A DNA stretch of 64,000 nucleotides from Acidobacteriota bacterium (GTDB lineage: Bacteria; Acidobacteriota; CAIWXX01), in contig JBFMAF010000013.1 in assembly GCA_040755995.1 (NCBI GenBank), forward strand, positions 757-64,756. The letters run 5' to 3'. The stretch's first letter is position 1. Every line of letters starts with the position of its first letter. The notes under the pieces were generated by a model that was given only the letters and a program-made list of their open reading frames with translations, was not told where the DNA came from and made no database searches. The position numbers and the translations under genes were made by a program. Of this stretch, positions 1,542 through 49,683 are shown piece after piece.

Positions 1542-1606
1542 CTCTCTACGCGAGGCGGGGCCAAAGCGGCCTGGTATCCTTCATGGTCCAGAGGCCGTGC
1601 CTCGTC
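1519..1606. repeat. dispersed composite element, full-length copy ((CTCTCNN)n tract + CGCGAGGCGGGGCC + CCAGAGGCCGTGCCTCG hairpin tail)
   Basis: About 80% identical over roughly 90 bp to the copy at 28878-28965. Shorter copies are at 8317-8330, 19858-19910, 24568-24612, 27884-27912, 35162-35182 and 41309-41352. Confidence 0.6.
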
Positions 1607-5836: not shown

Positions 5837-5943
5837 TAGAGCTGCTTCCCGTCTAGCGAGGCGGGGCCTGGAGGAAAATCAGGCCAGGCCGATTCACCAC
5901 TGCGCCTGTGGATGTCATCATGCGTGCCGTGAAGCGAGAAAGC

Positions 5944-7494: not shown

Positions 7495-7729
7495 CAGCCG
7501 GCCATTCTAGCACAGGTTGACAGTCATCAGTTGGCGGTCGTCGGTTTCGCTGCGAAACACTCGCAGGCGGGCGCAGGGATGGTCCGTTTCGGGCCGGCTG
7601 GTGTGGGCCCCCCTTCGGGCTCTGAACGTCGTCGCGGACTGGGTGGCGTGGCGGCGCGGCGGCGTGGATTCTGGCTCGTTTTGTTCTTGCGACTATGGTA
7701 GAATGATGCGAGAGAGGGAGGTTGGGAAC

Positions 7730-8323: not shown

Positions 8324-8380
8324 AGAGTGGCGCACCCGGCCAGTCGGCTTCGCCCGCTGGCCAGGCTTCGGAGTCGCCAG

Positions 8381-17457: not shown

Positions 17458-17640
17458 TGCCTTTGCATGGCAATGCCGCAGGGCGGCCACTGGGTCCGCC
17501 CCCACGTTGGGTTTTGCATTCTGCCTTTGGCAATGCCGCAGGGCGGCCACTGGGTCCGCCCCCACGTTGGGTTTTGCATTCTGCCTTTGGCAATGCCGCA
17601 GGGCGGCCACGGGGGGCCGCCCCTACGTTACATTTTGCCT
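17458..17640. repeat. three tandem approximately 60-bp direct repeats, each carrying an internal GGGCGG..CCGCCC palindrome; the third unit is degenerate
   Basis: Units 17458-17521 and 17522-17581 are identical except for a 3-bp insertion. The third copy merges into a TTGACC-N17-TAGGAT promoter-like sequence about 45 bp upstream of the response regulator start. Confidence 0.85.
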
Positions 17641-17686
17641 TTGACCTGAGGCGACCCGTCGATTAGGATAGCAAAGGGGGACCGGC

Positions 17687-18371: not shown

Positions 18372-18406
18372 AACCTTGAACCTTGAACCTTGAACCTTGA
18401 ACCGTC
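18372..18406. repeat. tandem heptamer (AACCTTG)4 plus one degenerate unit, located between the response regulator stop and the kinase start
   Basis: Direct reading. Each unit contains the overlapping codons TTG and TGA (TTGA). Confidence 0.85.
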
Positions 18407-19847
18407 TTTGCTGTGGCCGCGCAGTTTGCGAGCCAGGTTGGTGGCTCTGCAGGTCGTTGTATTCGGGTGCATGCTCCTGTTCAGCGGTCCGTTCACGTAC
18501 CTGTTCATGCTTCAGACCCTCGATCGTGATTTCGACGACTACCTCTTGTTCCAGGCCAAAGAACTGGCAGCCGACTACAACCGGGGCGGCGGGGTGGATG
18601 AGCACGGCATCGGGATCCGGCCCTGTCCTTTGCCGCACGTCGGGCCTCGCTCGGTACACAGCCCCCGGCACCTTCTGATCTACGACGCTGCCGGACGCGG
18701 GCGAACCGTATGCAGTGATGGCGAAGAAGCGCCGCTGGGTATCCAGTCGGTGCTGGAGGCGTCGCGGAGCGGGTCCGCGGCTTTCGCGGACGTGCGGTGG
18801 TCGGGCGAGGTACTGCGCCTCGTGGCGTATCCATTCGAAGATCGGACCGGGCGGCGGCTGGTCATGGAGGTCGGATCATCGCACATCGTCATCGAAGGCA
18901 CACTCAGGAAAGGGCTATTCTTCATCCTGCTGATAGACGTGCTCGCGCTACCGCTGCTCGTCGCAGGCAGCTATCTGCTTGCGCGCGAAGCGTTCGCTCC
19001 GATACGACGGATCGTGCAGCAGGTGGAGCAGATTGACGAGGCGAACCTGGCCGAGCGGCTGCCGCATGGAGGGACCACCGACGAGGTCAACCGGCTGGTG
19101 GTGGTTATCAACCACATGTTGGGACGACTGGAGCGGGCCTTCGATGCGCAGCGGATATTCTCGAGTGATGTCTCCCACGAAATAAGGTCCCCATTGACGG
19201 CGCTGCGAGGCGAGATCGAAGTCGCGCTCAGGAAGGAGCGAACGGCGATCGAGTATCGTCGTGTTCTCGAAGGCAGTCTGGAAGAGGTCCTGCGTCTGAC
19301 CCGCCTCGCCGAGGACCTCATGAGCCTCGCCCAGGCAGATGCCGGCGTGTTCCAGATGAGGCTTGCCAGGGTGGATCTGCGGGAGCTGCTCGCGCAGATC
19401 GTGCGCCGATTCAAGACGCGGGCAGGCGAGAAGAACATCCGCCTCATCCTTCACGTTACCGAAGGGCTCTCGGTGCTCGGCGATCCCGATTGGCTGGGCA
19501 GGCTTGTCGAGAACCTCGTTGACAACGCGCTGATTCATGCGCCGCAAATGGGAGAGGTGAGTGTCGACGCGCGGAAGAGCGATCCGAGCTCCGAGCCTGA
19601 GCCGCATGCGCTCATCGCAGTCCGAGACACTGGGCCTGGAATCCCGGCCGAGCACCTACCGCATATCTTCGATCGTTTCTACCGGGCCGACCAGTCGAGG
19701 TCGCGGAGCCAGGGAGGCGCCGGGCTCGGCCTTGCCATCGCGAAGCAGATCGCCACGCTGCACGGAGGCAAGATAGAGGCCAGGAGCGCTGTAGGAGAAG
19801 GCAGCGAGTTCCTTGTGTGGCTACCCGTCGGGGGACCGAGAGCCTGA
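18390..19847 (+). CDS. sensor histidine kinase (two TM segments, periplasmic loop, HAMP, HisKA, HATPase_c)
   Basis: H-box SHEIRSPLTALRGEIEVAL. N/G boxes DTGPGIPAEHLPHIFDRFYRAD and GGAGLGLAIAK. The start codon TTG lies inside the heptamer repeat. Confidence 0.85.
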   Translation: MNLEPSLLWPRSLRARLVALQVVVFGCMLLFSGPFTYLFMLQTLDRDFDDYLLFQAKELAADYNRGGGVDEHGIGIRPCPLPHVGPRSVHSPRHLLIYDAAGRGRTVCSDGEEAPLGIQSVLEASRSGSAAFADVRWSGEVLRLVAYPFEDRTGRRLVMEVGSSHIVIEGTLRKGLFFILLIDVLALPLLVAGSYLLAREAFAPIRRIVQQVEQIDEANLAERLPHGGTTDEVNRLVVVINHMLGRLERAFDAQRIFSSDVSHEIRSPLTALRGEIEVALRKERTAIEYRRVLEGSLEEVLRLTRLAEDLMSLAQADAGVFQMRLARVDLRELLAQIVRRFKTRAGEKNIRLILHVTEGLSVLGDPDWLGRLVENLVDNALIHAPQMGEVSVDARKSDPSSEPEPHALIAVRDTGPGIPAEHLPHIFDRFYRADQSRSRSQGGAGLGLAIAKQIATLHGGKIEARSAVGEGSEFLVWLPVGGPRA

Positions 19848-19857
19848 GCCGTCGCCG

Positions 19858-19910
19858 CGCACTCTCCACTCTCTACTATTCTCCACCGGCTACGCGAGGC
19901 CGCGCCTCGC
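19858..19910. repeat. dispersed composite element copy (CTCTCCACTCTCTAC... + CGCGAGGCCGCGCCTCGC hairpin) between the convergent HK and mrcA genes
   Basis: Shares the GCGCACTCTC start and the hairpin with the copies at 1519 and 41309. Confidence 0.55.
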
Positions 19911-22210
19911 TAGAACATGTGCCGCGGGCAGAACTCGACGGGCTCGGTGCCCTCGATGAATGGCAGGATGTCGACCTGGTTGCACAGCGCAGTGGCGAGG
20001 TAGCCGGTCGTCGGATCGATCGCACGGAAGGCGATGCTGTCGGGGATGAAGAAGTCCTCCTCGCGGCTCCCGGCCAATGCCTTCGACATGAACTCCGTCC
20101 AGATCGGCACGGCGGCCTGCGCACCGGTCAGGCCCACGGGCGAGTTGTCGTCGAAGCCCACCCAGACGATTGCTACCAGTTGAGGGACGAACCCGGCGAA
20201 CCAGCAGTCGCGCATATCGTTTGAGGTGCCGGTCTTGCCGGCCGCAGGACGGCCGAAGCCCAATGACCTGATGGAAGCCGCCGTGCCCTGGTCTACGACG
20301 GCTTTCATAAGCTCGATGAGGAGATAGTCGACCTCCGGCGACATGGCTCTCTTGCGCTCGATCGTGGGTCTGCTCAGGACCTCGCCTGCTTCATCGCGGA
20401 TGCTCTCGATTCCATGGAGCCCGGCGCGGACGCCGCCGCCGGCGATCGTCGAGAACACCTCGGCCATTTCGATTGGAGCCACCTCGAAGCCGCCGAGCGA
20501 GATCGAGGGGTAAGCGGAGATCTTGGATGTGATGCCCATTCGGCGCGCCATCTGCACGACTTTGTCGAGGCCGGTTTCGAGCGCGAGCTTGGCAGTGGGG
20601 ACGTTGAGGGATTGCGTCAGGACGCGCTTGAGATTGACCTCGCCGTTGTAGCCTTCGAAGTTGGCCGGGGTCCATTCCTTGCCCCTGAACATGAACGTGG
20701 TCTGCTCGTCCATGAGGAGGCTGGCAGGAGTCCAGGTCGGGTCGGAGTCGCTCGCGAACGCCGCGGCGAAGACAACCGGCTTGAATGCGGAGCCCGGCTG
20801 CCTGTGCGCATCGGTTACCCGGTTGAACTGGCTCCCGCCGTAGTCGCGGCCGCCGACCATCGCTCGGATGGCGCCTGTGCGCGGGTCCACCGCGACCAGA
20901 CACCCTTCGAGCCGCCTCTTTCCAAACCGCTTCGAGTAGGTCTTCTGGAGTCTGTCGAGCGTCTCGCGAAGCGCGCGCTGCGCGATCTCCTGCATCGACG
21001 GGTCGATGGTGGTGAAGATCGAAAGATTCCTGGTCTGCAGCTCTTTCAGGTCGAAGCTGGTGCTGATGGTGCGGCGGATCCAGTCGGCGAAGTACGGGGC
21101 CTCGTTCACCTCTTTGCTCAGCGGCTCGATTCCCAGCGGCCGTGCCTTGGCCGGGGCCGCGAGGTCTTCGGAGATGTAGCCCTCCTCGGCCATCCGGTCC
21201 AGAACCCAGTTCCTCCGCTCGATCGCCTTCTCCGGGTACTTGTACGGCGAGTATGTGTTCGGCGCCCGGATGATTCCGGCGAGCAGCGCGCACTCGGAGA
21301 GCGACATGTCCGAGACGTTGCGGCGGAAGTAGATCCTCGCCGCTTTGGCGAAGCCGTTGATGCTGATCGCGCCGCGCTGGCCCAGGTAGATCTCGTTCAC
21401 GTACATCTCCATTATCTCCTGCTTGCTGGCGCGCCGCTCGAGGCACCACGCCATGAAGATCTCCTGAGCCTTCCTCTTGAGCGTCCTCTCGGGCGTGAGG
21501 AAGTAGTTCTTCACGAGCTGCTGGGTGATGGTGCTGCCGCCCTGGAGCGTGTCGCTGAAGAGGCTGGCAAAGAGCGCGCGGACCATGGCCAGCATGTCGA
21601 AGCCGGGGTGATCGAAGAACCGATGGTCTTCGGCGGCGAGTATCGCATTGACCAGGTTCTTGGGCATGCGGCTGAGCGGCACGACCTCGCGGTCCTCGCG
21701 CGAGCTCGGGTAGTACTCGGTGATGAGCTGAGGCTCGATCACCAGGGAGAACATGCGCGAGCCGTCGTGAATGTAGTTGATGTCGAGGATGCGGCCGCGG
21801 CTGAAGACGATTCGGACAGGGCCTTTGAGCTTCTGGATCGCCAGCGGGGGGAAGGCCCGCGGATAGACGTCGACGGCATTCTTCCTGAGGGCGTATTCAC
21901 CCTCGACAGACGGGTTGCCGGCGCTCACGCGGTAGTCGAGGTTGCGCAGGACTGCCAGGACCCGCTCCTGACTGAACGCCATCCCGGGCTGCAGTGCGTA
22001 GGGCTCGCCGTAGAGCTTGGAGCTGATGTCCCAGCGCGGTCCCGAGAGACGCTCCCCTATGACGGCACTGTAGCGACGTTCCAGGGCGACGATCCATGCG
22101 AACGACACTGCTCCAAGCAGAACACCTGCCGATGCGGCGACGATCAACGCCCGGTGCCGCTTCGGCAGCCTCAACCTCCCCCGCCGGCCTTCACCGCGTC
22201 TCCGTGTCAC
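19910..22210 (-). CDS. mrcA: penicillin-binding protein 1A (bifunctional transglycosylase/transpeptidase)
   Basis: Cytoplasmic RR-rich N-terminus plus a TM segment. GT51 motifs (EDHRFFDHPG, RQGGSTITQQ) and transpeptidase SxxK/SxN/KTG motifs (GSAFKP, KTGTSND). Confidence 0.9.
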   Translation of the reverse strand: MTRRRGEGRRGRLRLPKRHRALIVAASAGVLLGAVSFAWIVALERRYSAVIGERLSGPRWDISSKLYGEPYALQPGMAFSQERVLAVLRNLDYRVSAGNPSVEGEYALRKNAVDVYPRAFPPLAIQKLKGPVRIVFSRGRILDINYIHDGSRMFSLVIEPQLITEYYPSSREDREVVPLSRMPKNLVNAILAAEDHRFFDHPGFDMLAMVRALFASLFSDTLQGGSTITQQLVKNYFLTPERTLKRKAQEIFMAWCLERRASKQEIMEMYVNEIYLGQRGAISINGFAKAARIYFRRNVSDMSLSECALLAGIIRAPNTYSPYKYPEKAIERRNWVLDRMAEEGYISEDLAAPAKARPLGIEPLSKEVNEAPYFADWIRRTISTSFDLKELQTRNLSIFTTIDPSMQEIAQRALRETLDRLQKTYSKRFGKRRLEGCLVAVDPRTGAIRAMVGGRDYGGSQFNRVTDAHRQPGSAFKPVVFAAAFASDSDPTWTPASLLMDEQTTFMFRGKEWTPANFEGYNGEVNLKRVLTQSLNVPTAKLALETGLDKVVQMARRMGITSKISAYPSISLGGFEVAPIEMAEVFSTIAGGGVRAGLHGIESIRDEAGEVLSRPTIERKRAMSPEVDYLLIELMKAVVDQGTAASIRSLGFGRPAAGKTGTSNDMRDCWFAGFVPQLVAIVWVGFDDNSPVGLTGAQAAVPIWTEFMSKALAGSREEDFFIPDSIAFRAIDPTTGYLATALCNQVDILPFIEGTEPVEFCPRHMF

Positions 22211-22267
22211 CGTGTCACCGCGCCTGTCTGCGACTGAGCAAATCCGGTTGCTCTCTCTTCCGGCAGC

Positions 22268-24520
22268 TCAGTCTGACGGGGGCTTGAGGGTGTCGAGGTA
22301 GTCCGGTTTGACGAGAATCTCGCGGCTCTTGTTGGGGCCGGTCGACGGGCCGACGATCCCCTGCTCCTCCATGATATCTATCAGCCGCGCCGCGCGGTTG
22401 TAGCCCAGCTTCAGCCGGCGTTGGAGGTGCGAAGCGGACGCCTGACCGGAGCTCAGCACCAGCTCCACCGCCTGTCTGAACAGCTCATCCTGCACTTCGC
22501 CTCCGCCGCCTGCCTCGGTCTCCTCCTTGTCAAGGTCCTTGAGGAATGCGTGGTTGTAGCTCGGCTTGCCCTCTCTCCTGAGGAAGTTGGCGATCCTCAT
22601 CACCTCTTCTTCGCTGACGTAAGCGCCGTGGATGCGCTGCAGCCGGCTGGTGCCAGGAGCCAGGAAGAGCATGTCGCCGTCGCCGAGCAGGTGCTCTGCT
22701 CCGCCAGTGTCGAGGATCGTGCGCGAGTCCACCTTCTGGCTGACGCGGAACGAGATGCGTGCGGGCAGGTTGTTCTTGATCGTGCCGGTGATGACGTCGA
22801 CCGAAGGGCGCTGTGTCGCGAGAATCAGGTGAATGCCGACGGCCCGCGCCATCTGTGCCAGCCGCCCGATCTGGTGTTCGACCTCCTTCGGCATCTCCGC
22901 CATGAGGTCTGCGAGCTCGTCGATGACGATCACCAGGTACGGCAGCAGCTCGAACCGCTCATCCGGAAGATGCTTCGGCAGATCCTTGGTGTGGACCTTG
23001 TGATTGTACTGGTCGATGTTGCGCACCTGGGTGCGGAACAGGAGCTGCGTGCGCCGGTCCAGCTCTCGCTTGGCGTTCTTGAGCGCGATGACGGCCTTCC
23101 TCGGCTCGGTGATGACTTCACAATAGAGGTGCGGCATGTCTGCATACACGGTCAGCTCGACGCGCTTCGGGTCGATCAATATGAGCCGGACCTGTTCGGG
23201 TGTCGCCGAGTAAAGGAGCGAACAGATCATCGAGTGCAGCGAGACGGACTTGCCCATGCCGGTGGCGCCCGCGATGAGAAGGTGAGGCATCCGTGCCAGG
23301 TCGGCGACGAACGGCTCGCCCGTTGTGTTCTTTCCCAGGGCGAGCTTGAGCAGGGCGTGCGACCGCTGGTACTGCTGCGATGTCAGGATCTCGCGCAGGC
23401 ATATCCTCTCGCGCTTGACGTTGGGCACCTGGATGCCGACCGTCGACCGGCCTGCGATCTTGTCGATCATCACCGACTCGGCCTTCAACGCGAGCGAGAG
23501 ATCGTCGACCATACCCTGCATGCGGCTGTACTTCACCCCCGCACTCGCCTGGTACTCGAATGTCGTGATCACCGGTCCGGGGTGCATGTCCGTGACGGCA
23601 CCCTCGATCCCGAACTCGGCGAACTTCGATTGAATCACCTTGGCCTTCGCATGGAACTCGCGCTCGTCTACGGCGTTGTCAGGCGCTGGATTGTCGAGCA
23701 GCGATGGCGACGGCAACGTGAACCGCGACGTCGCGGGTCTGGGCTGGTCGGGGAACGGCAGCTCCTCCTGGACAGGGCGCTTGGGCGCGGCGGTCACAGC
23801 CGGTGCCCGCTCGGGCTGAGCGGGAAGAGCCGCAGCAGCCGATGGCGGCAGGGCAGGCGAGGACACGCGCGACGCGTGCTTCGCCAGGACCTCCTTCCTG
23901 AGCTGCGTGCGCTCGTGCCGATCCTTCAGAGCCCTGAGCCGCCCGGCGACAAGCTCGGCGAGACTCGAGAACGGCCGGAAGCACAGGCGCAGCATGTCGG
24001 GAAGCGAAAGGCGGGTCAGGAAGAGCATCGCGATCAGCGCGAGCGCCGCGCAGAGAAGAAGCCCGCCCCACGGGCTGAGCCGCGAAACCAGATACGTGCC
24101 CAACGCCTCTCCGAAGCCGCCTCCGAAAGACAGGTTGCGATACCGGTGGGCCGGCAGGAGAATGGCGAGCGCGGCGGCACCGACCGCCACGAGCACCAGC
24201 GCACCCGCAACGCGCGAGAGCACGCTGGTGGTGGGACGATGGAGCAGCAGGCGGAACCCAACGACAATGCCCAGAAGCGGCAGCAGAAACGAAGTGATGC
24301 CGAAGAGCTGCAGGAGCACGTCCGAGGCATAGGCACCTGCAACTCCAGCCTTGTTCTGCACCGACGGGGCCTCCGGCGACAGCCCCGTGCTGTTTAGCGA
24401 CGGATCGCTCGGGGCGTAGGTGAGGAGACTCAGGAGCAGAACCGTCGAGAGCGTGAGCATCAAGATCCCCTCGATCTCCATCACCCTCTTGTGCGCCCAG
24501 AAGGAACCCATGCTCATCAC
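22268..24520 (-). CDS. ftsK: DNA translocase FtsK/SpoIIIE
   Basis: N-terminal TM domain, proline-rich linker, motor Walker A (LIAGATGMGKSVSL), and a C-terminal gamma domain with a winged helix (ASHLQRRLKLGYNRAARLID). Confidence 0.9.
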   Translation of the reverse strand: MMSMGSFWAHKRVMEIEGILMLTLSTVLLLSLLTYAPSDPSLNSTGLSPEAPSVQNKAGVAGAYASDVLLQLFGITSFLLPLLGIVVGFRLLLHRPTTSVLSRVAGALVLVAVGAAALAILLPAHRYRNLSFGGGFGEALGTYLVSRLSPWGGLLLCAALALIAMLFLTRLSLPDMLRLCFRPFSSLAELVAGRLRALKDRHERTQLRKEVLAKHASRVSSPALPPSAAAALPAQPERAPAVTAAPKRPVQEELPFPDQPRPATSRFTLPSPSLLDNPAPDNAVDEREFHAKAKVIQSKFAEFGIEGAVTDMHPGPVITTFEYQASAGVKYSRMQGMVDDLSLALKAESVMIDKIAGRSTVGIQVPNVKRERICLREILTSQQYQRSHALLKLALGKNTTGEPFVADLARMPHLLIAGATGMGKSVSLHSMICSLLYSATPEQVRLILIDPKRVELTVYADMPHLYCEVITEPRKAVIALKNAKRELDRRTQLLFRTQVRNIDQYNHKVHTKDLPKHLPDERFELLPYLVIVIDELADLMAEMPKEVEHQIGRLAQMARAVGIHLILATQRPSVDVITGTIKNNLPARISFRVSQKVDSRTILDTGGAEHLLGDGDMLFLAPGTSRLQRIHGAYVSEEEVMRIANFLRREGKPSYNHAFLKDLDKEETEAGGGGEVQDELFRQAVELVLSSGQASASHLQRRLKLGYNRAARLIDIMEEQGIVGPSTGPNKSREILVKPDYLDTLKPPSD

Positions 24521-24682
24521 ATCTCAGCGAGGCGCGGCCTCAGACCGATGAACCATGGCAGGCTGCGTCGGCCGCACCTCGCGCAGTGAGTACAGAGTGG
24601 AGAGTGGCGGCGACGCACCGCTCCGAGAACTTGACTCAACCGCCACGTATTCCGCGCCTCAAGCCGGCTGTGCGGCAGTCCC

Positions 24683-24703
24683 CGAAATTCGAAATCCGAA
24701 ATC
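24683..24703. repeat. tandem heptamer (CGAAATT CGAAATC CGAAATC) immediately downstream of the rnj stop
   Basis: Direct reading. The heptamer is the same as at 2962-2996. Confidence 0.7.
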
Positions 24704-24715
24704 TCCATCGTCTGC

Positions 24716-26365
24716 CTAGACCTCCATGATCACCGGAATGATCATGGGCCTTTTCATGGTCCGCTTCGAGAGGAAGCGGCGGACTTCGCGCCTGAGTTTT
24801 TCTTTGACGGCCGCCCAGTCTTGTCTCTCTTCGAGCGGCAGCTCCGATATCACCGTGGCACAGACCTGCTGGGTGTCGTGGAGGACCCCGTCGTCCTCGA
24901 ACTCCAGAAACCCGCGTGCGATGACCTCCGGAGCGCCGCGCAGCGAGCCGTCTGTCTTGTTGATCGCCAGGACCAGGACCACGAAACCGTCGGCCGAGAG
25001 ATGCTTCCTGTCGGCCAGTATCGTCTCTTCAACCTCTCCGTAGCCGCTCACGTCGATGAACACTCGGCCGACGTCGATCTTGCCGGTGATGGCAGCCGAC
25101 TCGGGCGTGAGCGACACGACGTCGCCGGTCTCGGCGATAAGGATGTTTTCGTCCGGGATACCCACCTGCCGAGCCAGGTCCGCGTGCGCATAAAGCTGCC
25201 GGAATTCGCCGTGGATCGGGATGAAGTACCGTGGCATGACGATTCGGATGAGCAGCTTCAGCTCCTCCTGGCTCGCGTGTCCCGATACGTGGACATCGGC
25301 GACATCCTCATGGAACACTCTCGCTCCGCGCCGGACCATGCGGTTGATGACGCCGGAGACGCTTCTCTCGTTGCCCGGGATGATTCTGGCCGAAATGATG
25401 ACCGTGTCACCCGCGTCGACCTGAACGTAGCGATAATCCATCATGCTGATCCGGTTCATGGCCGAGAGGGCCTCGCCCTGGCTTCCCGTCGCCAGCACCA
25501 CGAGCTCCCCGGCTGGGATCTGCCGGATTTCCTCTCTGCGCACGAGCATTTCTTGCGGGACGGACAAGTAGCCCAGGCGGCCGCAGATGTCGAAAATCTC
25601 GATCATGGCCCGACCGAGCACGGCGAGTCTTCTGCCGTGCTTCGCAGCCAGCTCCACGATCTGCTGGATGCGAGAGAGACCTGTGGCGAAGCAGGTGACG
25701 AATATACGCCCGGTGGACGCGGCGAAGATCTCGTCCATGCGGCGGAGAATCGCGGACTCCGACGGCGTGTACCCCGGCTGCTCCGCGTTCGTGGAATCGG
25801 AGAGCAGCGCCAGGACGCCCTGTTCCGAGTACTGCGCGAGTCGCTGGAAGTCAATGCCCTCACCGCGGAAGGGTGTGGAATCGATCTTGAAGTCACCGCT
25901 GTGGACGACGTTGCCGGCCGGCGTCTTGATTGCCATCCCCATGGCGTCGGCCAGCGAATGCGAGACCTGAAGGAATTCGATCTCGAAACATCCCGCAGCG
26001 ATGATGTCTCTCGCCGACACAGCCACGCGTCTTCGACTCGCCTCCACTGCGTGCTCCGAGAGCTTCGATTCGATCAGCGCCATCGTTAGCGCCGACCCGT
26101 AGACCGGGGCGTCGATCTCTCTGAGGAGGTACGGCAAAGCTCCGGCGTGATCCTCGTGTGCGTGCGTGAGGAGGATAGCACGGATGCGGTCCCGGCTGTC
26201 GAACAGATAGCTGAAGTCGGGGATGATGACGTCGACCCCCGGCGCGCTTTCGTCAGGAAACATGAGCCCGGCATCGATCACGATGGCGTCATCACCACAC
26301 TCCATCACGGTGCAATTCATCCCGAACTCGCCGAGCCCGCCGAGCGGGACAATCTTGAGCTCCAT
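24716..26365 (-). CDS. rnj: ribonuclease J (metallo-beta-lactamase / beta-CASP family)
   Basis: MELKIVPLGGLGEFGMNC...HAHEDHAG beta-lactamase motif, beta-CASP and a C-terminal domain. 549 aa. Confidence 0.9.
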   Translation of the reverse strand: MELKIVPLGGLGEFGMNCTVMECGDDAIVIDAGLMFPDESAPGVDVIIPDFSYLFDSRDRIRAILLTHAHEDHAGALPYLLREIDAPVYGSALTMALIESKLSEHAVEASRRRVAVSARDIIAAGCFEIEFLQVSHSLADAMGMAIKTPAGNVVHSGDFKIDSTPFRGEGIDFQRLAQYSEQGVLALLSDSTNAEQPGYTPSESAILRRMDEIFAASTGRIFVTCFATGLSRIQQIVELAAKHGRRLAVLGRAMIEIFDICGRLGYLSVPQEMLVRREEIRQIPAGELVVLATGSQGEALSAMNRISMMDYRYVQVDAGDTVIISARIIPGNERSVSGVINRMVRRGARVFHEDVADVHVSGHASQEELKLLIRIVMPRYFIPIHGEFRQLYAHADLARQVGIPDENILIAETGDVVSLTPESAAITGKIDVGRVFIDVSGYGEVEETILADRKHLSADGFVVLVLAINKTDGSLRGAPEVIARGFLEFEDDGVLHDTQQVCATVISELPLEERQDWAAVKEKLRREVRRFLSKRTMKRPMIIPVIMEV

Positions 26366-26399
26366 CGGCGGAATTATAGCACAGCCCCGCAGACCGGCC

Positions 26400-26552
26400 C
26401 CGAGCAGTTGGCAGTTGACAGTTGGCAGTTGTCAGCGTAAAGATCCTTGCATGTGCGCCGTGTTGATAGAAATAGGGCAGTTGGGCGGCTCGGCACCGCC
26501 AGAGACTCCGCAGACCCCGAACTGCCAACTGGCAACTGGCGGCCGACAACTT
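26400..26552. repeat. inverted arrays of CAGTTGG-family heptamers flanking the rnj/rarA divergent intergenic region
   Basis: 26400-26434 reads GAGCAGT TGGCAGT TGACAGT TGGCAGT TGTCAGC. 26518-26552 reads the reverse-complement units GAACTGC CAACTGG CAACTGG CGGCCGA CAACTTC, about 85 bp apart. Confidence 0.7.
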
Positions 26553-26554
26553 CC

Positions 26555-27889
26555 ATGAGGAACGATCAACTCTCGTTGTTCGGCGAGGACAAGTCAGGCT
26601 CGCCGCTGGCCGAACGGATGCGACCTTGCGGCCTGGAGGAGTTCTGCGGGCAGGAGCATCTGCTCGGGCCGGGCCGGCTGCTGCGGGTGGCCATCGAGCG
26701 CGGCGACGCTTTCTCGATGATCTTCTGGGGGCCGCCGGGCACCGGGAAGACGACGCTCGCCTTCATCATCGCCAAACGCACGTCGTGTCGCTTCATACCG
26801 TTCTCCGCGGTGACCTCGGGCATCAAGGAGATCAAGGCGGTCATGGAGGAAGCCGAGTCGGAATGGAGAACACGCCAGCGGCGGTCCATGCTGTTCATCG
26901 ACGAGATCCATCGCTTCAACAAGGCACAGCAGGATGCGTTTCTGCCGTACGTCGAGCGCGGGCATATCGTGCTTGTCGGCGCCACCACCGAGAACCCCTC
27001 TTTCGAGATCAACTCCGCCTTACTTTCCCGCGTGAAGGTGCTGGTGCTGAATCCGCTGGCGGAGGCGGACGTACGGCGGATCGTGGAGCGGGCCCTGGAG
27101 TCCGAGAAGGGGCTGGGTCCGATGGAGCTGAGACTCGAACCGCCCGCGCTTGACTCGATTGTCGCGTTCGCGAATGGGGATGCTCGGGTGGCGCTGAACG
27201 CCATAGAGCTCGCAGCCGGACTGGTCGCAGACCGCGATCGCCTGATCACCATCGACATGGTCAAGACTGCGCTCCAGAAGAAGACCCTCCTGTATGACAA
27301 GGCGGGCGAGGAGCACTACAACCTGATCTCGGCGCTTCATAAGAGCCTCCGCAACTCCGACCCTCAGGCCGCGCTCTACTGGCTCGTGCGGATGGTCGAA
27401 GGAGGCGAGGACCCGCTCTACATCGCCCGCCGGATGGTAAGGTTCGCCGTGGAAGACGTTGGGCTGGCCGATCCGCGGGCTCTCGACGTCAGCCTCGCAG
27501 CTCGCGACGCATTCCACTTCCTGGGGCAGCCCGAAGGCAACCTGGCGCTGGCGCAGGCCGCGATCTACCTGGCGTCCTGCCCGAAGAGCAACTCAATCTA
27601 TAAAGCTTACGACGCGGTCACGGCCGACCTCGAAGGAGCGATCGCCGATCCAGCGCCGCTGCAGATCCGGAACGCACCGACGAGGTTGATGGACGAGCTG
27701 GGGTATGGCGAGGGCTACAAGTACGCGCATGAGGCTGCCGAGCGCATCACGGATCTGCAGTGCCTCCCCGATCGACTCCGGGACCGCATCTATTGGACAC
27801 CCATCAAGACCGGCTTCGAGAAGACTGTCGCCCAGCGCTTCGAGGAGTGGGAACGGCTGAAGAGGCAGTACCGGGAGAGAAAAGAGTAG
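26555..27889 (+). CDS. rarA: replication-associated recombination protein A (AAA+ ATPase RarA/MgsA)
   Basis: Walker A GPPGTGKTTLA. MgsA C-terminal helical domains. The stop TAG lies inside an AGAGTAG repeat. Confidence 0.9.
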   Translation: MRNDQLSLFGEDKSGSPLAERMRPCGLEEFCGQEHLLGPGRLLRVAIERGDAFSMIFWGPPGTGKTTLAFIIAKRTSCRFIPFSAVTSGIKEIKAVMEEAESEWRTRQRRSMLFIDEIHRFNKAQQDAFLPYVERGHIVLVGATTENPSFEINSALLSRVKVLVLNPLAEADVRRIVERALESEKGLGPMELRLEPPALDSIVAFANGDARVALNAIELAAGLVADRDRLITIDMVKTALQKKTLLYDKAGEEHYNLISALHKSLRNSDPQAALYWLVRMVEGGEDPLYIARRMVRFAVEDVGLADPRALDVSLAARDAFHFLGQPEGNLALAQAAIYLASCPKSNSIYKAYDAVTADLEGAIADPAPLQIRNAPTRLMDELGYGEGYKYAHEAAERITDLQCLPDRLRDRIYWTPIKTGFEKTVAQRFEEWERLKRQYRERKE

Positions 27890-27950
27890 AGAGTAGAGAG
27901 TGGAGAGTGGGCCGCTTGACATTGAGGCATGTCGGTCCTACATTTGAATT

Positions 27951-28568
27951 GTGATGAACAAACACTTGCAACAAGGTCGTCTCGCACGAGGAGCATGCTC
28001 GCATGTGAGCCTGCCGCTCCTATTGGCCGCAGCAGCGGCCCTCCTGATCGGCCCGTGCGGCATGCGCGCCCAGTCGCTGGCCGAGGTGGCCAAGGAGACG
28101 AAGAAGGCCGCGCAGACACAACCAGCGAAGCGGTCGTTCAACAACGACGACTTGCTGAATGTGCCGGAGGAGGGCGTTGACATGACGCACAAGTCAGGCC
28201 CTCGGGCGACGGTCGTGGTCACCTCGCCGGTGACGGCACCTGCCGCTCCGGCGCCTGAAGTGGAACCCAAGTCCCGCGGCCAGGACGAGTCCTATTGGAG
28301 GAGCCGGACAAGCCAGTTCGTCAAGGCCAAGGCCGATGCACAGGCGCGCGTGGACGAGCTGCAGAGCCAATTGAACATGCTCTACCCCGTCATGTGGGCG
28401 ACCGATGATCCCGCGCGGCGCGCCGAGTTGATGAACCAAGTCGACGCCAAGGAAAAGGCCATCGCCGCCGCCAGGCAGGCACTGGCGAAGGCCAACGAGG
28501 ATCTCGACAACCTGGCCGACGAAGCTCGCAGAGCCGGCGCCCTGCCGGGCTGGGTCCGTCACGACTGA
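27951..28568 (+). CDS. secreted hypothetical protein, paralog B (pairs with 7730-8323)
   Basis: Signal peptide. QSLAEVAKETKKAAQ...YWRSRTSQFVKAKADAQARVDELQ...NLADEARRAGALPGWVRHD is collinear with paralog A. Confidence 0.6.
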   Translation: MMNKHLQQGRLARGACSHVSLPLLLAAAAALLIGPCGMRAQSLAEVAKETKKAAQTQPAKRSFNNDDLLNVPEEGVDMTHKSGPRATVVVTSPVTAPAAPAPEVEPKSRGQDESYWRSRTSQFVKAKADAQARVDELQSQLNMLYPVMWATDDPARRAELMNQVDAKEKAIAAARQALAKANEDLDNLADEARRAGALPGWVRHD

Positions 28569-28877
28569 GGAACCCCGACGCGGAGACGCGGCGACACGGA
28601 GACGCGGTGATAAGGCCCGGGTCGCCTCTCCCCCTCACTGCGTCCTCTCGTCCGTCGCACAAGGCACGGGCTTGAACCACCGGCGAGCGAAGGCGCACGT
28701 CGAGTCCATCCCACGCCTCGATCACAACCTGTCGCGGCCTGCCTCAATTGCTTCACCGAGATTTGACACCCGCAAAGGCCGGGTCTATATTGAACTGCGC
28801 GCGTCCATGAGGCGAAACGACATGTTGCGATTGAGACAAGTTCTTGGAGCGATGGGTAATCGCCACAGGGGAGTCGG

Positions 28878-28965
28878 CTGCTCTCTGCTCTCTGCTCTCC
28901 AATCTTCACGCGAGGCGCGGCCGAACCAGCCTCGCATGCTTCATCGGTCCGAGGCCGTGCCTCGG
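28878..28965. repeat. dispersed composite element, full-length copy, directly upstream of the pgsA ATG
   Basis: CTGCTCTCTGCTCTCTGCTCTCC...CGCGAGGCGCGGCCGAACCAGCCTCGC...GGTCCGAGGCCGTGCCTCGG aligns along its length with 1519-1606. Confidence 0.6.
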
Positions 28966-28969
28966 TAGT

Positions 28970-29500
28970 ATGAACCTTCCGAATCTGCTGACGATCTTCC
29001 GGATCTTCCTGGTGCCGCTCCTGGTCGTAGTCATCCTCACCAAGTTCTCCGGCAAGGAAATTCTGGGGATAGTTATCCTCATCGTGGCATCGATCACCGA
29101 CTGGTTGGATGGTTTCATCGCCAGACGGCGAGGACAGGTGACGACTCTCGGTGTCCTTCTCGACCCGATTGCAGACAAGCTTCTGATCTGCTCGGCGTTC
29201 ATCGCCCTGGTGGAAGAGAGGCTGGCTCCGGCGTGGATGGTAGTGATAGTCATCGGCCGCGAGCTGGCTGTGACCGGGTTGCGATCGATCGCGGCGGCCA
29301 AGGGCGTCTCCATCGCGGCATCTGACCTGGGCAAGTTCAAGCTGGTCTCGCAGGTCATTGCCATTTGCCTGTTGCTGGGACGCGGGTTCCTCGGCCAGTT
29401 CGGGGTGCTGGCAGTCGTTGCCCTCTGGGTAGTGGTGGTCGTCGCCGTCATCTCCGGGGCGGAGTACTACGTCAGATTCCGGAAGGTCATCGGCACATAA
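28970..29500 (+). CDS. pgsA: CDP-diacylglycerol--glycerol-3-phosphate 3-phosphatidyltransferase
   Basis: CDP-alcohol phosphatidyltransferase motif DWLDGFIARRRGQVTTLGVLLDPIADK. Four TM segments. 176 aa. Confidence 0.85.
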   Translation: MNLPNLLTIFRIFLVPLLVVVILTKFSGKEILGIVILIVASITDWLDGFIARRRGQVTTLGVLLDPIADKLLICSAFIALVEERLAPAWMVVIVIGRELAVTGLRSIAAAKGVSIAASDLGKFKLVSQVIAICLLLGRGFLGQFGVLAVVALWVVVVVAVISGAEYYVRFRKVIGT

Positions 29501-29525
29501 CGACTCATCGCAGCCGAGGTGGATC

Positions 29526-30077
29526 ATGCTGGCAGAGGCAGAACGCCGGTACCTGTTGGACCTTGCTCGAAAGACTATCGCCGATCGGCTCGGCGTCGCT
29601 GCGGCACCGCCGCCCGCCCGCCCCGAGAACACGGCCGCCCTGCGAACACACAGAGGAGCATTTGTCACCTTGCACGCACGCGGCCGGCTGCGCGGCTGCA
29701 TCGGGTATATCCAGGCCGATCGCCCCATCGAGGACGTCGTGGTCGACGCAGCCGCGGCTGCCGCGTTCTCGGACTTCAGGTTCGCTCCGGTCGCGAACGC
29801 GGAGCTTGCCGGGCTGTCCATCGAGATTTCAGTTCTGACTCGTCCGGTGCGCACAGGCGCGCCCGAAGAGGTGCAGGTGGGCAGGCACGGCATCATCATT
29901 TCGCGCGGACACAGTCGCGGGCTGCTGCTTCCGCAGGTTGCGACCGAGCACTCGTGGGACCGGGCCACGTTTCTGTCCCAGGGTTGCCTCAAGGCCGGCC
30001 TGCCGCCGGACGCGTGGCAGAAGGGGGCGACGATAGAGGTGTTCGAGGCGGAGGTGTTCGGCGAAGCGAACGCGTAG
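29526..30077 (+). CDS. AMMECR1 domain protein
   Basis: GAFVTLHARGRLRGCIGYI and HGIIISRGHSRGLLLPQVA are conserved AMMECR1 motifs. Confidence 0.8.
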   Translation: MLAEAERRYLLDLARKTIADRLGVAAAPPPARPENTAALRTHRGAFVTLHARGRLRGCIGYIQADRPIEDVVVDAAAAAAFSDFRFAPVANAELAGLSIEISVLTRPVRTGAPEEVQVGRHGIIISRGHSRGLLLPQVATEHSWDRATFLSQGCLKAGLPPDAWQKGATIEVFEAEVFGEANA

Positions 30078-30227
30078 CGAGGCAGCGCTTCAGGCCCGCG
30101 ACGCGTCTCGCGGTTGAAGCGGCGTAGCCTCGTGTCGAGAGTGGGGAATGGAAGAGGCGGGGCCGCCCCTGAGGCGGCCGCGCCTTGCAGATCGGCGCGG
30201 CCAGGGCTGCCTTCGGGACGGCGAAGC

Positions 30228-34476: not shown

Positions 34477-35166
34477 ATGGAGGCTGAGATGAGATTCCCA
34501 CTGGCGATTGTCGTTGTTCTCGCAGCGGCCTGGCCGCTTTCCTGCATGGACCTGGACGCAGCCTTCTCTCTGGGCGTGACCGTCGGCTGGGCCGAGTTCT
34601 CGGCATTGCACTCGCCGTCTACGAATGCGGCCGCCGAAAGCCTCGGCATGGCGACGAGTTATGCCAAGGGCTGCGGATTGGACTCCGCCCCTCTCGACGA
34701 GATTCTCTCCAAGCTGGCGGGTGGAACAAAGCCGGACGCGGTATATAAGGATATCGGAGCAGCGCGGGATCTCTACCTTGCCACGACGGGCCAGTACAAG
34801 GCCGTGTGTGGAGAGGGGATGCGCAATCTGAGGAGTGTGATCTCGATGGGCTACCAGCTCGGCTTCGCCGAGGTCGCTTCAGCTGCGAATTGGAAGAATT
34901 CGAAATTCCTGATCCAGACGCTGTCGTGGGCGAAGGAAACCGCGGAAACGCTTCCCTGCGGTTTCGACACGGAGTCGCTCCAGTCCCTCATCGACCGTCT
35001 TACGGCGGGCGCTGCGGCTACCGAGATCGGAGCGGATCTGAAAACCGTGCGGCAGCAGTTTGCCGATGCGTGCAAGAGCGGCACAGTGACCGGCGGGCCC
35101 AAGCCGCCGGAACCGGTCGAGCCTCAGACGCAGCCGCAGACGCAGGAGGCAGCGGAAGTAGAGTAG
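34477..35166 (+). CDS. secreted hypothetical protein
   Basis: Signal peptide. No recognisable domain. The stop TAG lies inside a GTAGAGTAGAGAG repeat. Confidence 0.4.
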   Translation: MEAEMRFPLAIVVVLAAAWPLSCMDLDAAFSLGVTVGWAEFSALHSPSTNAAAESLGMATSYAKGCGLDSAPLDEILSKLAGGTKPDAVYKDIGAARDLYLATTGQYKAVCGEGMRNLRSVISMGYQLGFAEVASAANWKNSKFLIQTLSWAKETAETLPCGFDTESLQSLIDRLTAGAAATEIGADLKTVRQQFADACKSGTVTGGPKPPEPVEPQTQPQTQEAAEVE

Positions 35167-35202
35167 AGAGCAGAGCGCCAACTGCGCAAACCGCTGAGGG
35201 CC

Positions 35203-35316
35203 CTGGCCCGCGCTAAGGCCGCAGGTGCAGGGCGCCGAGGAGCGAGGAGCGCAGCGTACGCCCTGGTACGTGAGCACTGCAGCGACGAAGGCAACGCAGC
35301 AGATGCGGCCTTAGCG
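35203..35316. repeat. long-range inverted repeat (CCCGCGCTAAGGCCGCAG ... CTGCGGCCTTAGCGCGGG) between convergent genes
   Basis: 18-bp near-perfect arms separated by about 75 bp, read directly from the sequence. Confidence 0.6.
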
Positions 35317-35347
35317 CGGGATCAGGGGGAGAGTGGGCTCGTCCCGC

Positions 35348-35689
35348 CTACTCTTCGACGCTCTTATCCTCGTGCTCTTTGTACATGTACTTGATGTTGT
35401 GCTTGAGCACGAGCAGATTCGGTTCGCTCATCCTGTTGATCTTCAGGCAGGTCTTGTCGTACCACTCGATGACTCCGCGCAGGATCTCACCGTCGCTCAG
35501 GACCACCACCATCGGGGTCTTGCTGTTCATCTGCTTCAGGTAATAGAAGCTTTCGGCGTGCGTCTGCTCGGGCGGCATAGGCTTCTTGTGGACCGGGCGC
35601 ACGGAGAGCTGGTCCTTGTATTCCGACAGGCTGGGCCTGATGAGTTTCCTGTTGATGAAGTCATTCTTCGGCGGCAGCATCTTGGGCAT
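35348..35689 (-). CDS. divergent Hfq-like (Sm-fold) RNA-binding protein
   Basis: ESFYYLKQMNSKTPMVVVLSDGEILRGVIEWYDKTCLKI...NLLVLKHNIKYMY parallels the Hfq Sm1/Sm2 layout ([38 protein letters not shown]...VYKHAISTVVP), with a roughly 45-aa N-terminal extension. Confidence 0.5.
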   Translation of the reverse strand: MPKMLPPKNDFINRKLIRPSLSEYKDQLSVRPVHKKPMPPEQTHAESFYYLKQMNSKTPMVVVLSDGEILRGVIEWYDKTCLKINRMSEPNLLVLKHNIKYMYKEHEDKSVEE

Positions 35690-38610: not shown

Positions 38611-38877
38611 ATGGCTTACAAGACGCTGTACGTAGGCAACCTGTCCTACAGCGCAACCGAGCAGGACCTTAGGGACCTGTTCGCACAGTTCAACCCCGGT
38701 GAGATCCGGCTCATCGGCTCCAAGGGATTCGGCTTCGTGGATGTTCCATCTGAGAAGGTGGCCGAGGCCGTCTCCGCGACCAACATGAAGGAAGTCAGGG
38801 GCCGGGCGATTCGAGTCGACGAGGCGCGGCCTCGCCCCGAGAAGACCGGCGGCGGCCAGGGCCGTCACCGGGCCTAG
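38611..38877 (+). CDS. RRM-type RNA-binding protein
   Basis: RNP-2 LYVGNL and RNP-1 KGFGFVDV. 88 aa with a Gly/Arg-rich tail. Confidence 0.8.
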   Translation: MAYKTLYVGNLSYSATEQDLRDLFAQFNPGEIRLIGSKGFGFVDVPSEKVAEAVSATNMKEVRGRAIRVDEARPRPEKTGGGQGRHRA

Positions 38878-39399: not shown

Positions 39400-39402
39400 G
39401 CG

Positions 39403-39445
39403 GGAGACGAGAGACGAGAGACGAGAGACGGGAGAGGGGAGATGG
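39403..39445. repeat. purine-rich tandem heptamer (GAGACGA)x3-4 between the DsrE-like and DsrF-like genes
   Basis: GGGAGACGAGAGACGAGAGACGAGAGACGGGAGAGGGGAG read directly. It doubles as an extended Shine-Dalgarno-like tract. Confidence 0.75.
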
Positions 39446-41308: not shown

Positions 41309-41352
41309 AGACTCTCCACTCTCTCTCTACTCGAGGCGAGGCCGCGCCTCGC
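41309..41352. repeat. dispersed composite element copy directly after the sulfatase stop
   Basis: GAGACTCTCCACTCTCTCTCTACTCGAGGCGAGGCCGCGCCTCGCTA. Confidence 0.55.
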
Positions 41353-41354
41353 TA

Positions 41355-43538: not shown

Positions 43539-43668
43539 CCCAGGCGGCGTATCTCGCTGCAAGTTCCCCTCGTGAGAAAGTAGGATACCGCAGCGATCCG
43601 CTGAACTCAAGGAGTTGCACAAACGCACTGTATTCTGTATACTGACGCGTTTGAGATAGGGAGGAATC

Positions 43669-43863
43669 ATGGCAGCGAGATGCGAGATATGTGGAAAGGG
43701 TCCGATATATGGGAGTCGCGTCAGCCACGCCCACAACGTGACGAGCCGGCGGTACGAGCCGAATCTTCACCGCGTCAGGGCCTATCTCAACGGCGGCTAC
43801 CGGCACATGCGCGTGTGCACGCGCTGCCTGCGCAGCGGACTCGTCCAGAAGACCAAGAGCTGA
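43669..43863 (+). CDS. rpmB: 50S ribosomal protein L28
   Basis: MAARCEICGKGPIYGSRVSHAHNVTSRRYEPNLHRVRAYLNGG... matches the L28 N-terminal signature (CxxCGK..xxGNxVSHxxxxTxRRxxPNLQ). A TTGCAC-N17-TATACT promoter and a GGGAGG RBS lie upstream. Confidence 0.8.
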   Translation: MAARCEICGKGPIYGSRVSHAHNVTSRRYEPNLHRVRAYLNGGYRHMRVCTRCLRSGLVQKTKS

Positions 43864-47404: not shown

Positions 47405-47480
47405 AGTTGCAGCAAGACGCGGAGAACCGGGGGAACGGAGAATAGGAGAACCGGGGAGTCGGGGAAACGGAGAAACGGAG
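47405..47480. repeat. irregular GGAGAAC/CGGGGAA-type short tandem repeat tract
   Basis: GGAGAACCGGGGGAACGGAGAATAGGAGAACCGGGGAGTCGGGGAAACGGAGAAACGGAGAGGGGGAGAC lies between the htrA-like and transglutaminase genes. Confidence 0.6.
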
Positions 47481-47507
47481 AGGGGGAGACGCGGAGATGC
47501 GCGCGGG

Positions 47508-49598: not shown

Positions 49599-49633
49599 CG
49601 GATTCCGCATTCCGCATTCCGCATTCCGCAATC
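49599..49633. repeat. tandem heptamer (CGGATTC CGCATTC CGCATTC CGCATTC CGCAATC) at the DUF58-TgpA junction
   Basis: Direct reading. On the coding (minus) strand the unit GAATGCG contains an ATG in every unit. Confidence 0.8.
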
Positions 49634-49683
49634 CCAAGGACGAGAGCGCACGACAGGCGCATGCGGAACGGCCACACGCGCCA

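Follow-up and report, generated by a model that had tools for sequence, protein, structure and literature searches.

The 64-kb stretch of Acidobacteriota DNA examined here, referred to as the window, contains a family of small non-coding intergenic repeats in which a run of heptamers (module T) is joined to a GC-rich hairpin (module H), with the copies lying between housekeeping genes. The window has a GC content of 59–65%, no tRNA genes were found in it, and its gene complement is that of an ordinary chromosome, including proS, a nadB-like gene, a type IV pilus/type II secretion system (T2SS)-like cluster and the genes for PBP1a, FtsK and RNase J (the nearest relatives of the latter being 61–68% identical), together with rarA/mgsA, pgsA, AMMECR1, holB, tmk, groES/EL, ackA-pta, and others. 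Two genes for small RNA-binding proteins are also present, one encoding an Hfq-related protein with an N-terminal extension of ~55 residues (35348–35689, minus strand) and the other an 88-residue RNA recognition motif (RRM) protein (38611–38877, plus strand). The repeats occupy nine sites, comprised of four long copies, two short composites, and three sites with the tract alone, giving six H-bearing sites in 64 kb. All copies are extragenic, and the CT-rich strand is the plus strand at four sites and the minus strand at five, with no strand bias.

Module T consists of two to five tandem heptamers of the form GTRGAGA (variants GTAGAGA, GTGGAGA, and GCAGAGA), corresponding to the GAGAGNN or CTCTCNN runs of the initial annotation, and most T arrays share a GC-rich left edge, GCSCCA. 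A 17-mer, CACTCTCCACTCTCTAC, is common to the three tract-only copies; it occurs exactly at 19860 and 27893 and with one mismatch at 24590, 1533, and 27886. The specific order of variant units shared through this 17-mer indicates that the T arrays are not independent products of slippage. Module H is built on the palindrome CGAGGC-NNN-GCCTCG, present either singly (short form) or as an inverted doublet (long form). The single unit has a stem of 6–7 bp and a 3-nt loop (GCGAGGC-NNN-GCCTCGC), whereas in the long form (51–54 nt) two inverted units, of which the tract-proximal one is degenerate, surround a partly conserved spacer of 25–30 nt (..CATGNTTCATCGGTC..) and fold, whether as RNA or as single-stranded DNA, into one hairpin of ~55 nt with a 12–14 bp stem. 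Terminal inverted repeats are thus present in H, with the arms CGAGGCNCGGCC and GGCCGNGCCTCG. The GC-rich segments originally described as two separate hairpins pair as the two arms of this single structure, and the element first seen as one composite is indeed tract joined to hairpin, but made of two separable modules, the tract standing alone at three sites.

Copy A (1519–1606, plus strand) contains module T at 1519–1549, with four CTCTCNN heptamers (Tandem Repeats Finder (TRF) period 7, 4.3 copies), and the long form of H at 1551–1604, an inverted palindrome doublet forming one hairpin. Its H begins 3 nt past the TAA stop of a T2SS-G-like gene (1608–2186, minus strand), and its tract lies 28 nt ahead of the ATG of a DUF192 gene (1490, minus strand). 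In copy B (28878–28968, plus strand) the tract spans 28878–28908 (TRF period 7, 3.1 copies, 100% match) and the long-form H spans 28911–28964, ending 5 nt upstream of the pgsA ATG at 28970; a promoter-like site, TTGACA-17-TATATT, is located at 28763–28791, 87 nt upstream of the tract. Copy C (24524–24614, minus strand) has its long-form H at 24528–24581 and its tract at 24585–24612, so that a segment previously listed as a short copy, 24568–24612, is really the tract end of a third full-length copy. On the minus strand the H of copy C ends 7 nt ahead of the first possible start of ftsK (GTG at 24520; ATG at 24517). Copy D (30074–30163, minus strand) is long but diverged, with H at 30078–30131, its end abutting the TAG stop of the AMMECR1 gene (29526–30077, plus strand), and a degenerate module T, CCTCTTCCATTCCCCACTCTCGAC, at 30134–30160.

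The shorter copies listed in the initial annotation fall into two groups, two of them (19858–19910 and 41309–41352) having the tract with one palindrome and three (at 8317, 27884, and 35162) the tract alone. In the short composite at 19860–19913 (plus strand), module T (19860–19892) contains the exact 17-mer and is followed by the palindrome GCGAGGC-CGC-GCCTCGC at 19894–19910, the last base of which is shared with the TAG stop of the PBP1a gene (19910–22210, minus strand). The second composite (41310–41355, plus strand) has module T at 41310–41331 and the palindrome CGAGGC-CGC-GCCTCG at 41337–41351, preceded by a partial duplication of one arm and directly after the TAG TAG double stop of a sulfatase gene (41355–43736, minus strand). 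The three tract-only copies, all on the minus strand, each contain a TAG stop codon within the tract: that of the mgsA/rarA-like gene, the stop lying at 27887–27889, in the copy at 27875–27910, that of the gene at 7517–8323 in the copy at 8316–8330, and that of the gene at 34477–35166 in the copy at 35159–35182. A possible remnant of H at 5853–5871 (plus strand), where CTAG and then CGAGGCGGGGCCTGG resemble the 5′ arm of copy A and no tract is present, constitutes weak evidence and was not counted; in this region between the nadB-like and Na/Ca-exchanger genes (5853–5890), a different 7-bp hairpin, GGCCTGG..CCAGGCC, follows CGAGGCGGGGCCTGG, which may itself be a decayed H arm. A palindrome at 38820 was rejected as a copy, being inside the RRM-protein gene and encoding the conserved C-terminal stretch ..VDEARPRPE...

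All motif counts exceed those in 100 dinucleotide-preserving shuffles of the window. The core pattern CGAGGNGNGGCC-N15–35-GAGGCCGNGCCTCG has three matches (0.00 in shuffles); CTCTCNNCTCTC is found 11 times exactly (0.40) and 27 times with one mismatch (10.2); the 17-mer with up to three mismatches has nine matches at six sites (0.17); and the palindrome CGAGGCSNSGCCTCG with up to one mismatch has seven (0.34). Copies A and B, reported from the start as two ~90-nt copies (1519–1606 and 28878–28965) aligning along their whole length, share 80% identity over 84 nt in a gap-free alignment that includes the spacer, and the hairpin arms are the best-conserved portion among the copies. Neither of the refuting outcomes named in the initial annotation, copy numbers at the chance level and a hairpin portion lacking conservation, is thus observed. 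A covariance model derived from the three closely similar long copies (A, B, and C) and run on the whole window with filters off scored them at 102, 103.6, and 100.8 bits, respectively, and revealed copy D as a fourth long copy (28.7 bits, E = 2e-5). The model also recovered both short composites (19860–19913 and 41310–41355) and the tract-only site at 27868–27909, with weak matches at the tract-only sites 35140–35179 and 8286–8336. The long copies are 77–80% identical to each other, with a mean column identity of 77–84% among A, B, and C, and D is far more diverged. The order of tract and then H is constant in all six H-bearing copies, and in five of them (A, B, C, and the composites at 19858 and 41309) the tract-distal unit has the loop CGY when read on the CT strand, which points to common descent or a strand-specific process. 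As the identity of A and B extends through the spacer, and as the CGY loop and the order of modules are shared, the copies are, judged from their sequences, homologous and not convergent.

When both strands were folded, only the CT strand gave a uniform result: all three of copies A, B, and C form a single hairpin on it, in which an outer stem of 12–13 bp pairs GCGAGGCGCGGCC with GGCCGYGCCUCGC and the tract remains unpaired, whereas folds of the other strand are inconsistent between copies. Every long copy contains a single G-U pair when read on the CT strand, which corresponds to an A-C mismatch on the opposite strand. Folding as RNA gave z-scores of −1.4 to −1.9 and folding as DNA −1.6 to −2.6; these modest values and the imperfect stems would fit old and slightly decayed copies. 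Stem covariation was assessed in an alignment of six sequences from two lineages, namely the four long window copies and two homologous doublets from another lineage (L117 and L091, described below). Across the 15-pair outer stem, 84% of cells are paired, compared with 30–50% when the 3′ partners are slid by one to three columns, and three pairs show compensatory changes; in a shuffle control, 23 of 500 alignments reached the observed pairing and 5–8 of 500 reached the pair-type and covariation scores. With six sequences only, this conservation is supportive of one long hairpin and is not decisive.

The H modules are found within 0–7 nt of coding sequence in six of six copies, next to a stop codon four times and next to a start codon twice (B and C). 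The stop is a TAG directly at H in three copies and a TAA 3 nt away in one. The intergenic spacers that host H measure 62–400 nt, and the product of the positional chances is approximately 1e-5, a rough estimate. Read on the sense strand, the layout is gene-TAG-(H)-(GTRGAGA)n at seven of nine sites, with B and C reversed and upstream of genes; the neighboring housekeeping genes are unrelated to one another, and both orientations are represented. Beyond H, one strand continues as CGTAGAGAG.. and the other enters a coding sequence. None of the copies is followed by a T-run, and a scan of 19000–30000 for intrinsic terminators flagged no copy. The lack of a U-run after the hairpin means that H is not a canonical terminator, and the terminator role once suggested for these hairpins is not supported. 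A likely cellular consequence would instead be the presence of a stable stem-loop after the stop of four genes and before the start of pgsA and ftsK, for which a stabilizing role as a 3′ stem-loop is possible.

Several other identities were considered for the element. An open reading frame of 12–13 codons runs through the long form on the GA strand, from an invariant ATGAA, and an upstream open reading frame (uORF) of 10 codons is found on the CT strand, read from the sequence as MLHRSEAVPR* in copy B, ending UAG-U-AUG, and as MVHRSEAAPR* in copy C, ending one codon before the GTG. Third codon positions show no excess of the differences between copies; both reading frames were treated as by-products, and a coding long form was rejected. 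Integron attC sites, DNA uptake sequences, and KOPS or Chi sites were set aside because their anatomy does not fit, there being no R′/R″ boxes and no strand bias. Comparison of the spacer by eye with the IHF-type site WATCAANNNNTTR produced no match, a scan of the whole window with Rfam 15 gave no family at the gathering score, and the regions around copies B and C gave no Rfam match at E ≤ 1.

The locus of copy C was compared in five relatives that are syntenic for RNase J, ftsK, and PBP1a, one of which (contig P0005) is known by gene calls only. The spacer between RNase J and ftsK measures 18 nt (L113), 25 nt (L114), 27 nt (L116), 64 nt (L115), and 80 nt (P0005) in these relatives, compared with 195 nt in the window. 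Given these short spacers, copy C and the neighboring CCGAAAT array are lineage-specific additions and not an ancestral ftsK leader. Of the 10 isolated matches to the core hairpin pattern found in GTDB species genomes, all were rejected as chance, the one at L010 being coding. A JGI metagenome scan seeded with the hairpin arms alone returned 102 loci, mostly unrelated; none has the tract or a TTCAT spacer, and only two, L018 (identical to L117) and L091, are homologous in the spacer. Both derive from one metagenome and are of ~70% GC. Their doublets resemble copies B and C in the arms and, within the spacer, in the stretch GGCCTC(A/G)GACCG..GA.CAT, which all four have in common. The MlaD gene next to L018 has named homologs at 67% identity that include “Acidobacteria bacterium” and “Vicinamibacterales bacterium” proteins.

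A filled and an empty site could be compared at this mlaD locus. In L117–L119, three assemblies of one Vicinamibacterales-like organism, the sequence reads ..CTGT TCTAG [H-CTAG-palindrome-CTAG-two more hairpins] TCTAG GGAGCG.., whereas the fully syntenic L120, with an 82% identical MlaD, reads ..CTGT TCTGA GGAGCG.. with a spacer of 10 nt, that is, an empty site. The difference is a clean indel of 184 nt after the mlaD stop, flanked by a 5-nt direct repeat, TCTAG. The initial annotation of a dispersed REP/MITE-like repeat (repetitive extragenic palindrome/miniature inverted-repeat transposable element), as opposed to a gene-attached signal, agrees with the occurrence of copies in both orientations beside unrelated housekeeping genes, with their absence from the orthologous RNase J-ftsK junction, and with the homologous doublet inside a clean insertion in another Acidobacteriota lineage. 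In L117 (9670–9853) and L091 (3084–3200) the doublet is followed by a palindrome, CGCAGTGACGC-TT-CGCGTCACTGCG, and then by a hairpin, GCCCCGCG-GAA-CGCGGGGC; the three hairpins stand in the same order at the two loci, separated by CTAG in L117, as a mosaic cluster in the style of bacterial interspersed mosaic elements (BIMEs). Doublets resembling REPINs (REP doublets forming hairpins) with the same CGAGGCC..GGCCTCG arms and unrelated spacers were also seen on unrelated metagenome contigs (L027, L035, L042, L060, L073, L094, L101; L014, L043, L070). One such family, on freshwater-sediment contigs Ga03152xx, has a clear GTAG tag (GGAGTAG-CGAGGCCATGCCTCG), and another has several copies on one low-GC contig of 339 kb.

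The immediate flanks of H match each other in five of eight sequences, as TAG/TAG (19858 and 41309), CAG/CAG (copy C), CTAG/CTAG (L117), and CCAG/CCAG (L091). Flanks that are alike within a copy and different between copies would be the signature of target duplication. The tetranucleotide CTAG is rare in the window, with 26 occurrences observed and 219 expected from base composition, and a large share of these are the TAG stops of called genes. As CTAG is strongly avoided and many of its occurrences are stop codons, targeting of (C/G)TAG would bring an element to the ends of genes. The best-supported reading of module T is that of a separate, older gene-end module, since T occurs alone three times in the window and a similar array without H exists in L115. 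The RNase J encoded next to this locus in L115 shares 61% identity with that of the window, and 5 nt after the TAG stop of PBP1a begins an array of period 7 (GTCCAGA GTCGAGA GTTCAGA GCGCC); the equivalent site in the window reads TAG-H-GTAG..GTAGAGAGTGGAGAGTGCGC, and L115 has no hairpin there.

Taken together, module H is probably a miniature insertion of the REP/REPIN or MITE kind, with (C/G)TAG at the stop-codon edge of T arrays as its target. In the corresponding model, T is a short GTRGAGA array, usually at a gene 3′ end, whose own TAG often serves as the stop codon, and H would be copied by a transposase encoded elsewhere. H would enter at this tetranucleotide and come to lie between short direct repeats. 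An inserted H would put a stable stem-loop straight after the stop of the upstream gene, and before the start codon in two copies, and its most probable effect would be that of a 3′ structure blocking exonucleases and not intrinsic termination. The repeat family with its two modules, the hairpin, the position at gene boundaries, the flanking repeats, and the filled and empty sites of a related lineage are directly seen; transposase-mediated spread within the source genome, the (C/G)TAG target, and any effect at the RNA level are what we infer.

A number of observations weigh against an insertion of this kind. No transposase of any type is found among ~50 scanned proteins of the window, neither the window nor the compared relative loci contain a parent autonomous insertion sequence (IS) whose ends match those of H, and the GTDB and JGI scans gave no further copy of the tract-hairpin composite. 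The flanks of H do not match in copies A, B, and D (three of eight sequences), and since CTAG is self-complementary, the CTAG..CTAG flanks of L117 could merely extend the stem. The pair of filled and empty sites comes from a different lineage and not from the source genome. The copies look old, being 77–80% identical with imperfect stems, where active REPIN populations are nearly identical, and current mobility is therefore doubtful on sequence grounds. The orientation of H relative to T is fixed in six of six copies, which is unexpected for a symmetric MITE of the terminal inverted repeat (TIR) type and favors one of two processes: a mechanism of the HUH type, acting on a specific strand, or the duplication of whole T+H composites, in which case H need not have inserted anew at every site.

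The closest known counterparts of H are the GTAG-type REPs and BIMEs (PMC3733652), which are likewise GC-rich extragenic palindromes with stems of 6–7 bp, 3-nt loops, and G-T wobbles, occur as singles and as inverted dimers 20–100 bp apart, supply TAG stops from their termini, and, as BIMEs, combine with other short motifs in mosaics. The termini of such REPs often provide the TAG stop codons of flanking open reading frames (Di Nocera et al. 2013, PMC3733652), and in that 2013 survey neither GTAG-type nor CGTC-type REPs are listed in Acidobacteria, only TIR-flanked tyrosine transposases (PMC3733652). The elements described here differ in that (G/C)TAG is found beside H in only three of six copies on one side and CGTAG in two of six on the other. 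Among these six copies, the GA-strand left flanks are GTAG (twice), CTAG (once), TCAG, CTAC, and ACGA, and the right flanks are CGTAG (twice), CGTGA, CGCAG, and TGTCG, with GTAG 7 nt out in the copy at 41309. They also differ in that a TAG-like trinucleotide tends to be found on either side of H, in the manner of a target duplication, that H is joined to a heptamer array, and that no REP-associated tyrosine transposase (RAYT) is seen within the 64-kb window. REPINs, which are mobilized by RAYTs (Bertels and Rainey 2011, PMC3116915; PMC3337134), are similarly inverted pairs of palindromes round a spacer, forming one long hairpin, extragenic and non-coding, but their populations are near-identical round a master sequence (PMC3116915), unlike the 77–80% identity here.

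The resemblance to MITEs of the IS5/IS630 type lies in the 12–14 bp terminal inverted repeats round a short core, in the flanking direct repeats (TAG, CAG, CTAG, CCAG, and TCTAG), and in the clean pair of filled and empty sites. IS5 duplicates a 4-bp YTAR target such as CTAG, and IS630 inserts at CTAG and duplicates TA. The element in the window is very small by comparison, at 51–54 nt, with mismatched flanks in three of eight sequences and a fixed orientation to the tract in all six copies. Because a GT[AG]G tag is present in about half of the copies, the copies are not near-identical, and the paired flanks rather resemble a target duplication of the DDE type, the sequences do not permit a claim of membership in the REP, REPIN, or MITE classes. 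Most work on REP/REPIN and MITE-type repeats has concerned Proteobacteria and Cyanobacteria, and Acidobacteria are an abundant and poorly cultured soil phylum; the present family adds modestly to what is known of such repeats, by taking them into a new lineage, and is not a new kind of element.

An origin by selection and not by insertion would account for part of the same evidence. The modules could be gene-boundary signals of 3′-untranslated regions that arose or were kept in place, for example a platform for an RNA-binding protein next to a protective stem-loop, their similarity being due to gene conversion and to a function in common. In seven of nine copies, the gene whose stop is abutted has the GA strand as its sense strand, eight of 18 arrays with a period of 7 or 8 nt begin 0–13 nt past a stop codon, a similar array follows the PBP1a stop in the relative with the 61% identical RNase J, genes for Hfq-like and RRM proteins are present in the window, and the arms are conserved in copies that, at 77–80% identity, are old. 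Such signals would not be expected in the opposite sense before start codons, as in B and C, and the absence of the element from the orthologous RNase J-ftsK junction in five relatives, the direct repeats flanking H, and the H homolog within a clean indel all favor insertion; in addition, the array units vary widely between sites, which argues against one common binding protein. This explanation is considered rather unlikely. Another proposal, that GA/CT-rich low-complexity sequence coincides by chance with ordinary GC-rich terminator hairpins, draws on the frequency of such hairpins at 62% GC and on the modest z-scores of single copies (−1.4 to −1.9), and its probability is negligible, being excluded by every shuffle test and by an alignment that runs through the non-palindromic spacer.

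Two further explanations place the function in an RNA read from the CT strand. If the repeats were cis-regulatory leaders or attenuators, a CU-rich single-stranded tract and a hairpin before pgsA and ftsK would act on the downstream gene, with a uORF in the hairpin coupling translation. This fits the position of copy B 5 nt before the pgsA ATG and of copy C 7 nt before the ftsK start, the unpaired tract and consensus hairpin of the CT strand, and the 10-codon uORFs ending at or next to the start codon. It is nevertheless very unlikely, as four of the six H copies have the opposite sense and follow stop codons, no comparable leader precedes ftsK in the relatives, no Rfam family matches, and the uORFs of B and C show four coding differences, of which two are synonymous, with no sign of coding constraint. 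A multicopy family of small trans-acting RNAs, in which the CU-rich tract would be a seed pairing with Shine-Dalgarno-like GGAG and the hairpin a 3′ structure, appears extremely unlikely. An unpaired CU-rich tract followed by a stable hairpin does resemble small RNAs with CU-rich seeds, and an Hfq-like gene is nearby, but the hairpin has no U-tail, a scan at copies B and C found no promoter-like site directly upstream of C, and the only one near B, 87 nt upstream, fits the pgsA promoter. Furthermore, the CT strand is antisense to both flanking genes in copy A and at 41309, short and tract-only forms exist, and there is no Rfam match.

Module T belongs to a wider set of tandem arrays in the window, of which there are nine with a period of 7 nt, compared with 0.17 in the shuffles, and 18 with a period of 7–8 nt, diverse in unit and none inside a Pfam-supported domain. 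In addition to the eight of 18 that begin 0–13 nt past a stop codon, four more are parted from the stop only by H. The other units are GAAATCC (2963–2999), AACCTTG (18372–18403), TCACCGTG (22191–22222), CCGAAAT (24682–24703), GCAGTTG (26404–26435), GACGCGGA (28573–28611), GAGACGA (39401–39443), CGGAGAAA (47416–47501), and ATTCCGC (49602–49634). Relatives L113 and L115 likewise carry tandem 7–8-mer arrays. Tandem hepta- and octanucleotide families of unknown function are found in intergenic regions of Geobacter metallireducens (PMC2700814), and heptamer arrays of unknown function, for example TAACTGA of Beggiatoaceae, occur also in Cyanobacteria and Bacteroidetes (PMC4679880). The arrays in the window resemble these in having 2–6 tandem copies of a 7–8-nt unit, almost all intergenic and near gene boundaries, and differ in unit sequence, in host phylum, and in the attachment of one array type to a palindromic element. 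TAACTGA arrays are located immediately ahead of start codons (PMC4679880), whereas those in the window begin mostly at or just after stops. Among cyanobacterial repeats, the STRR sequences are short tandem heptamer arrays.

The physical joining of H to heptamer arrays that sit on stop codons is unusual and, if it holds genome-wide, long-unexplained bacterial arrays would become experimentally approachable. It is conceivable, if distinctly unlikely, that the stop-proximal tandem 7–8-mers of the window and of relatives form a functional 3′-end system of this lineage, as landing pads made and used by a strand-specific HUH nuclease or as platforms for an RNA-binding protein. In the landing-pad case, palindromic elements would home to the arrays; the REP tag GT[AG]G is indeed found within GTRGAGA. 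The tract-hairpin composite would in that case be one instance of a general link between gene end, heptamer array, and palindromic insertion. The doublet shared by two divergent Acidobacteriota lineages, together with the empty site, offers a handle for the mobilizing enzyme and for strain typing, and the positions of the repeats bear on gene-call correction, as they contain or adjoin several stop codons and one start region.

Promoter-like sites were observed at several arrays. One, TTGACA-17-TACATT (27916–27944), starts 6 nt after the tract at 27875–27910, and a TTGACA lies inside the GCAGTTG array (26404–26446). In L115 (3712–3800), TTGACA-17-TATAGT follows an array of GCAGAGGA, and strong promoter-like sites thus adjoin or sit within purine-rich arrays.

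Two further repeats are present in the window. At 17468–17647, three tandem copies of a 60-nt unit, two of them identical and the third at 67%, separate the divergently transcribed genes for a peptidase M43 (minus strand) and a response regulator (plus strand); the fold of this repeat is unexceptional. An inverted repeat at 35201–35329 has perfect arms of 17 nt (CCCGCGCTAAGGCCGCA and TGCGGCCTTAGCGCGGG), a stem of ~23 bp, and an 85-nt interior; its RNA fold z-scores are −5.3 on one strand and −6.0 on the other, and it has no credible Rfam match. It is located beside the Hfq-like gene, between the tract-only copy at 35159–35182 and a GGAGAGTGGGC remnant, and may represent another palindromic insertion that split a tract.

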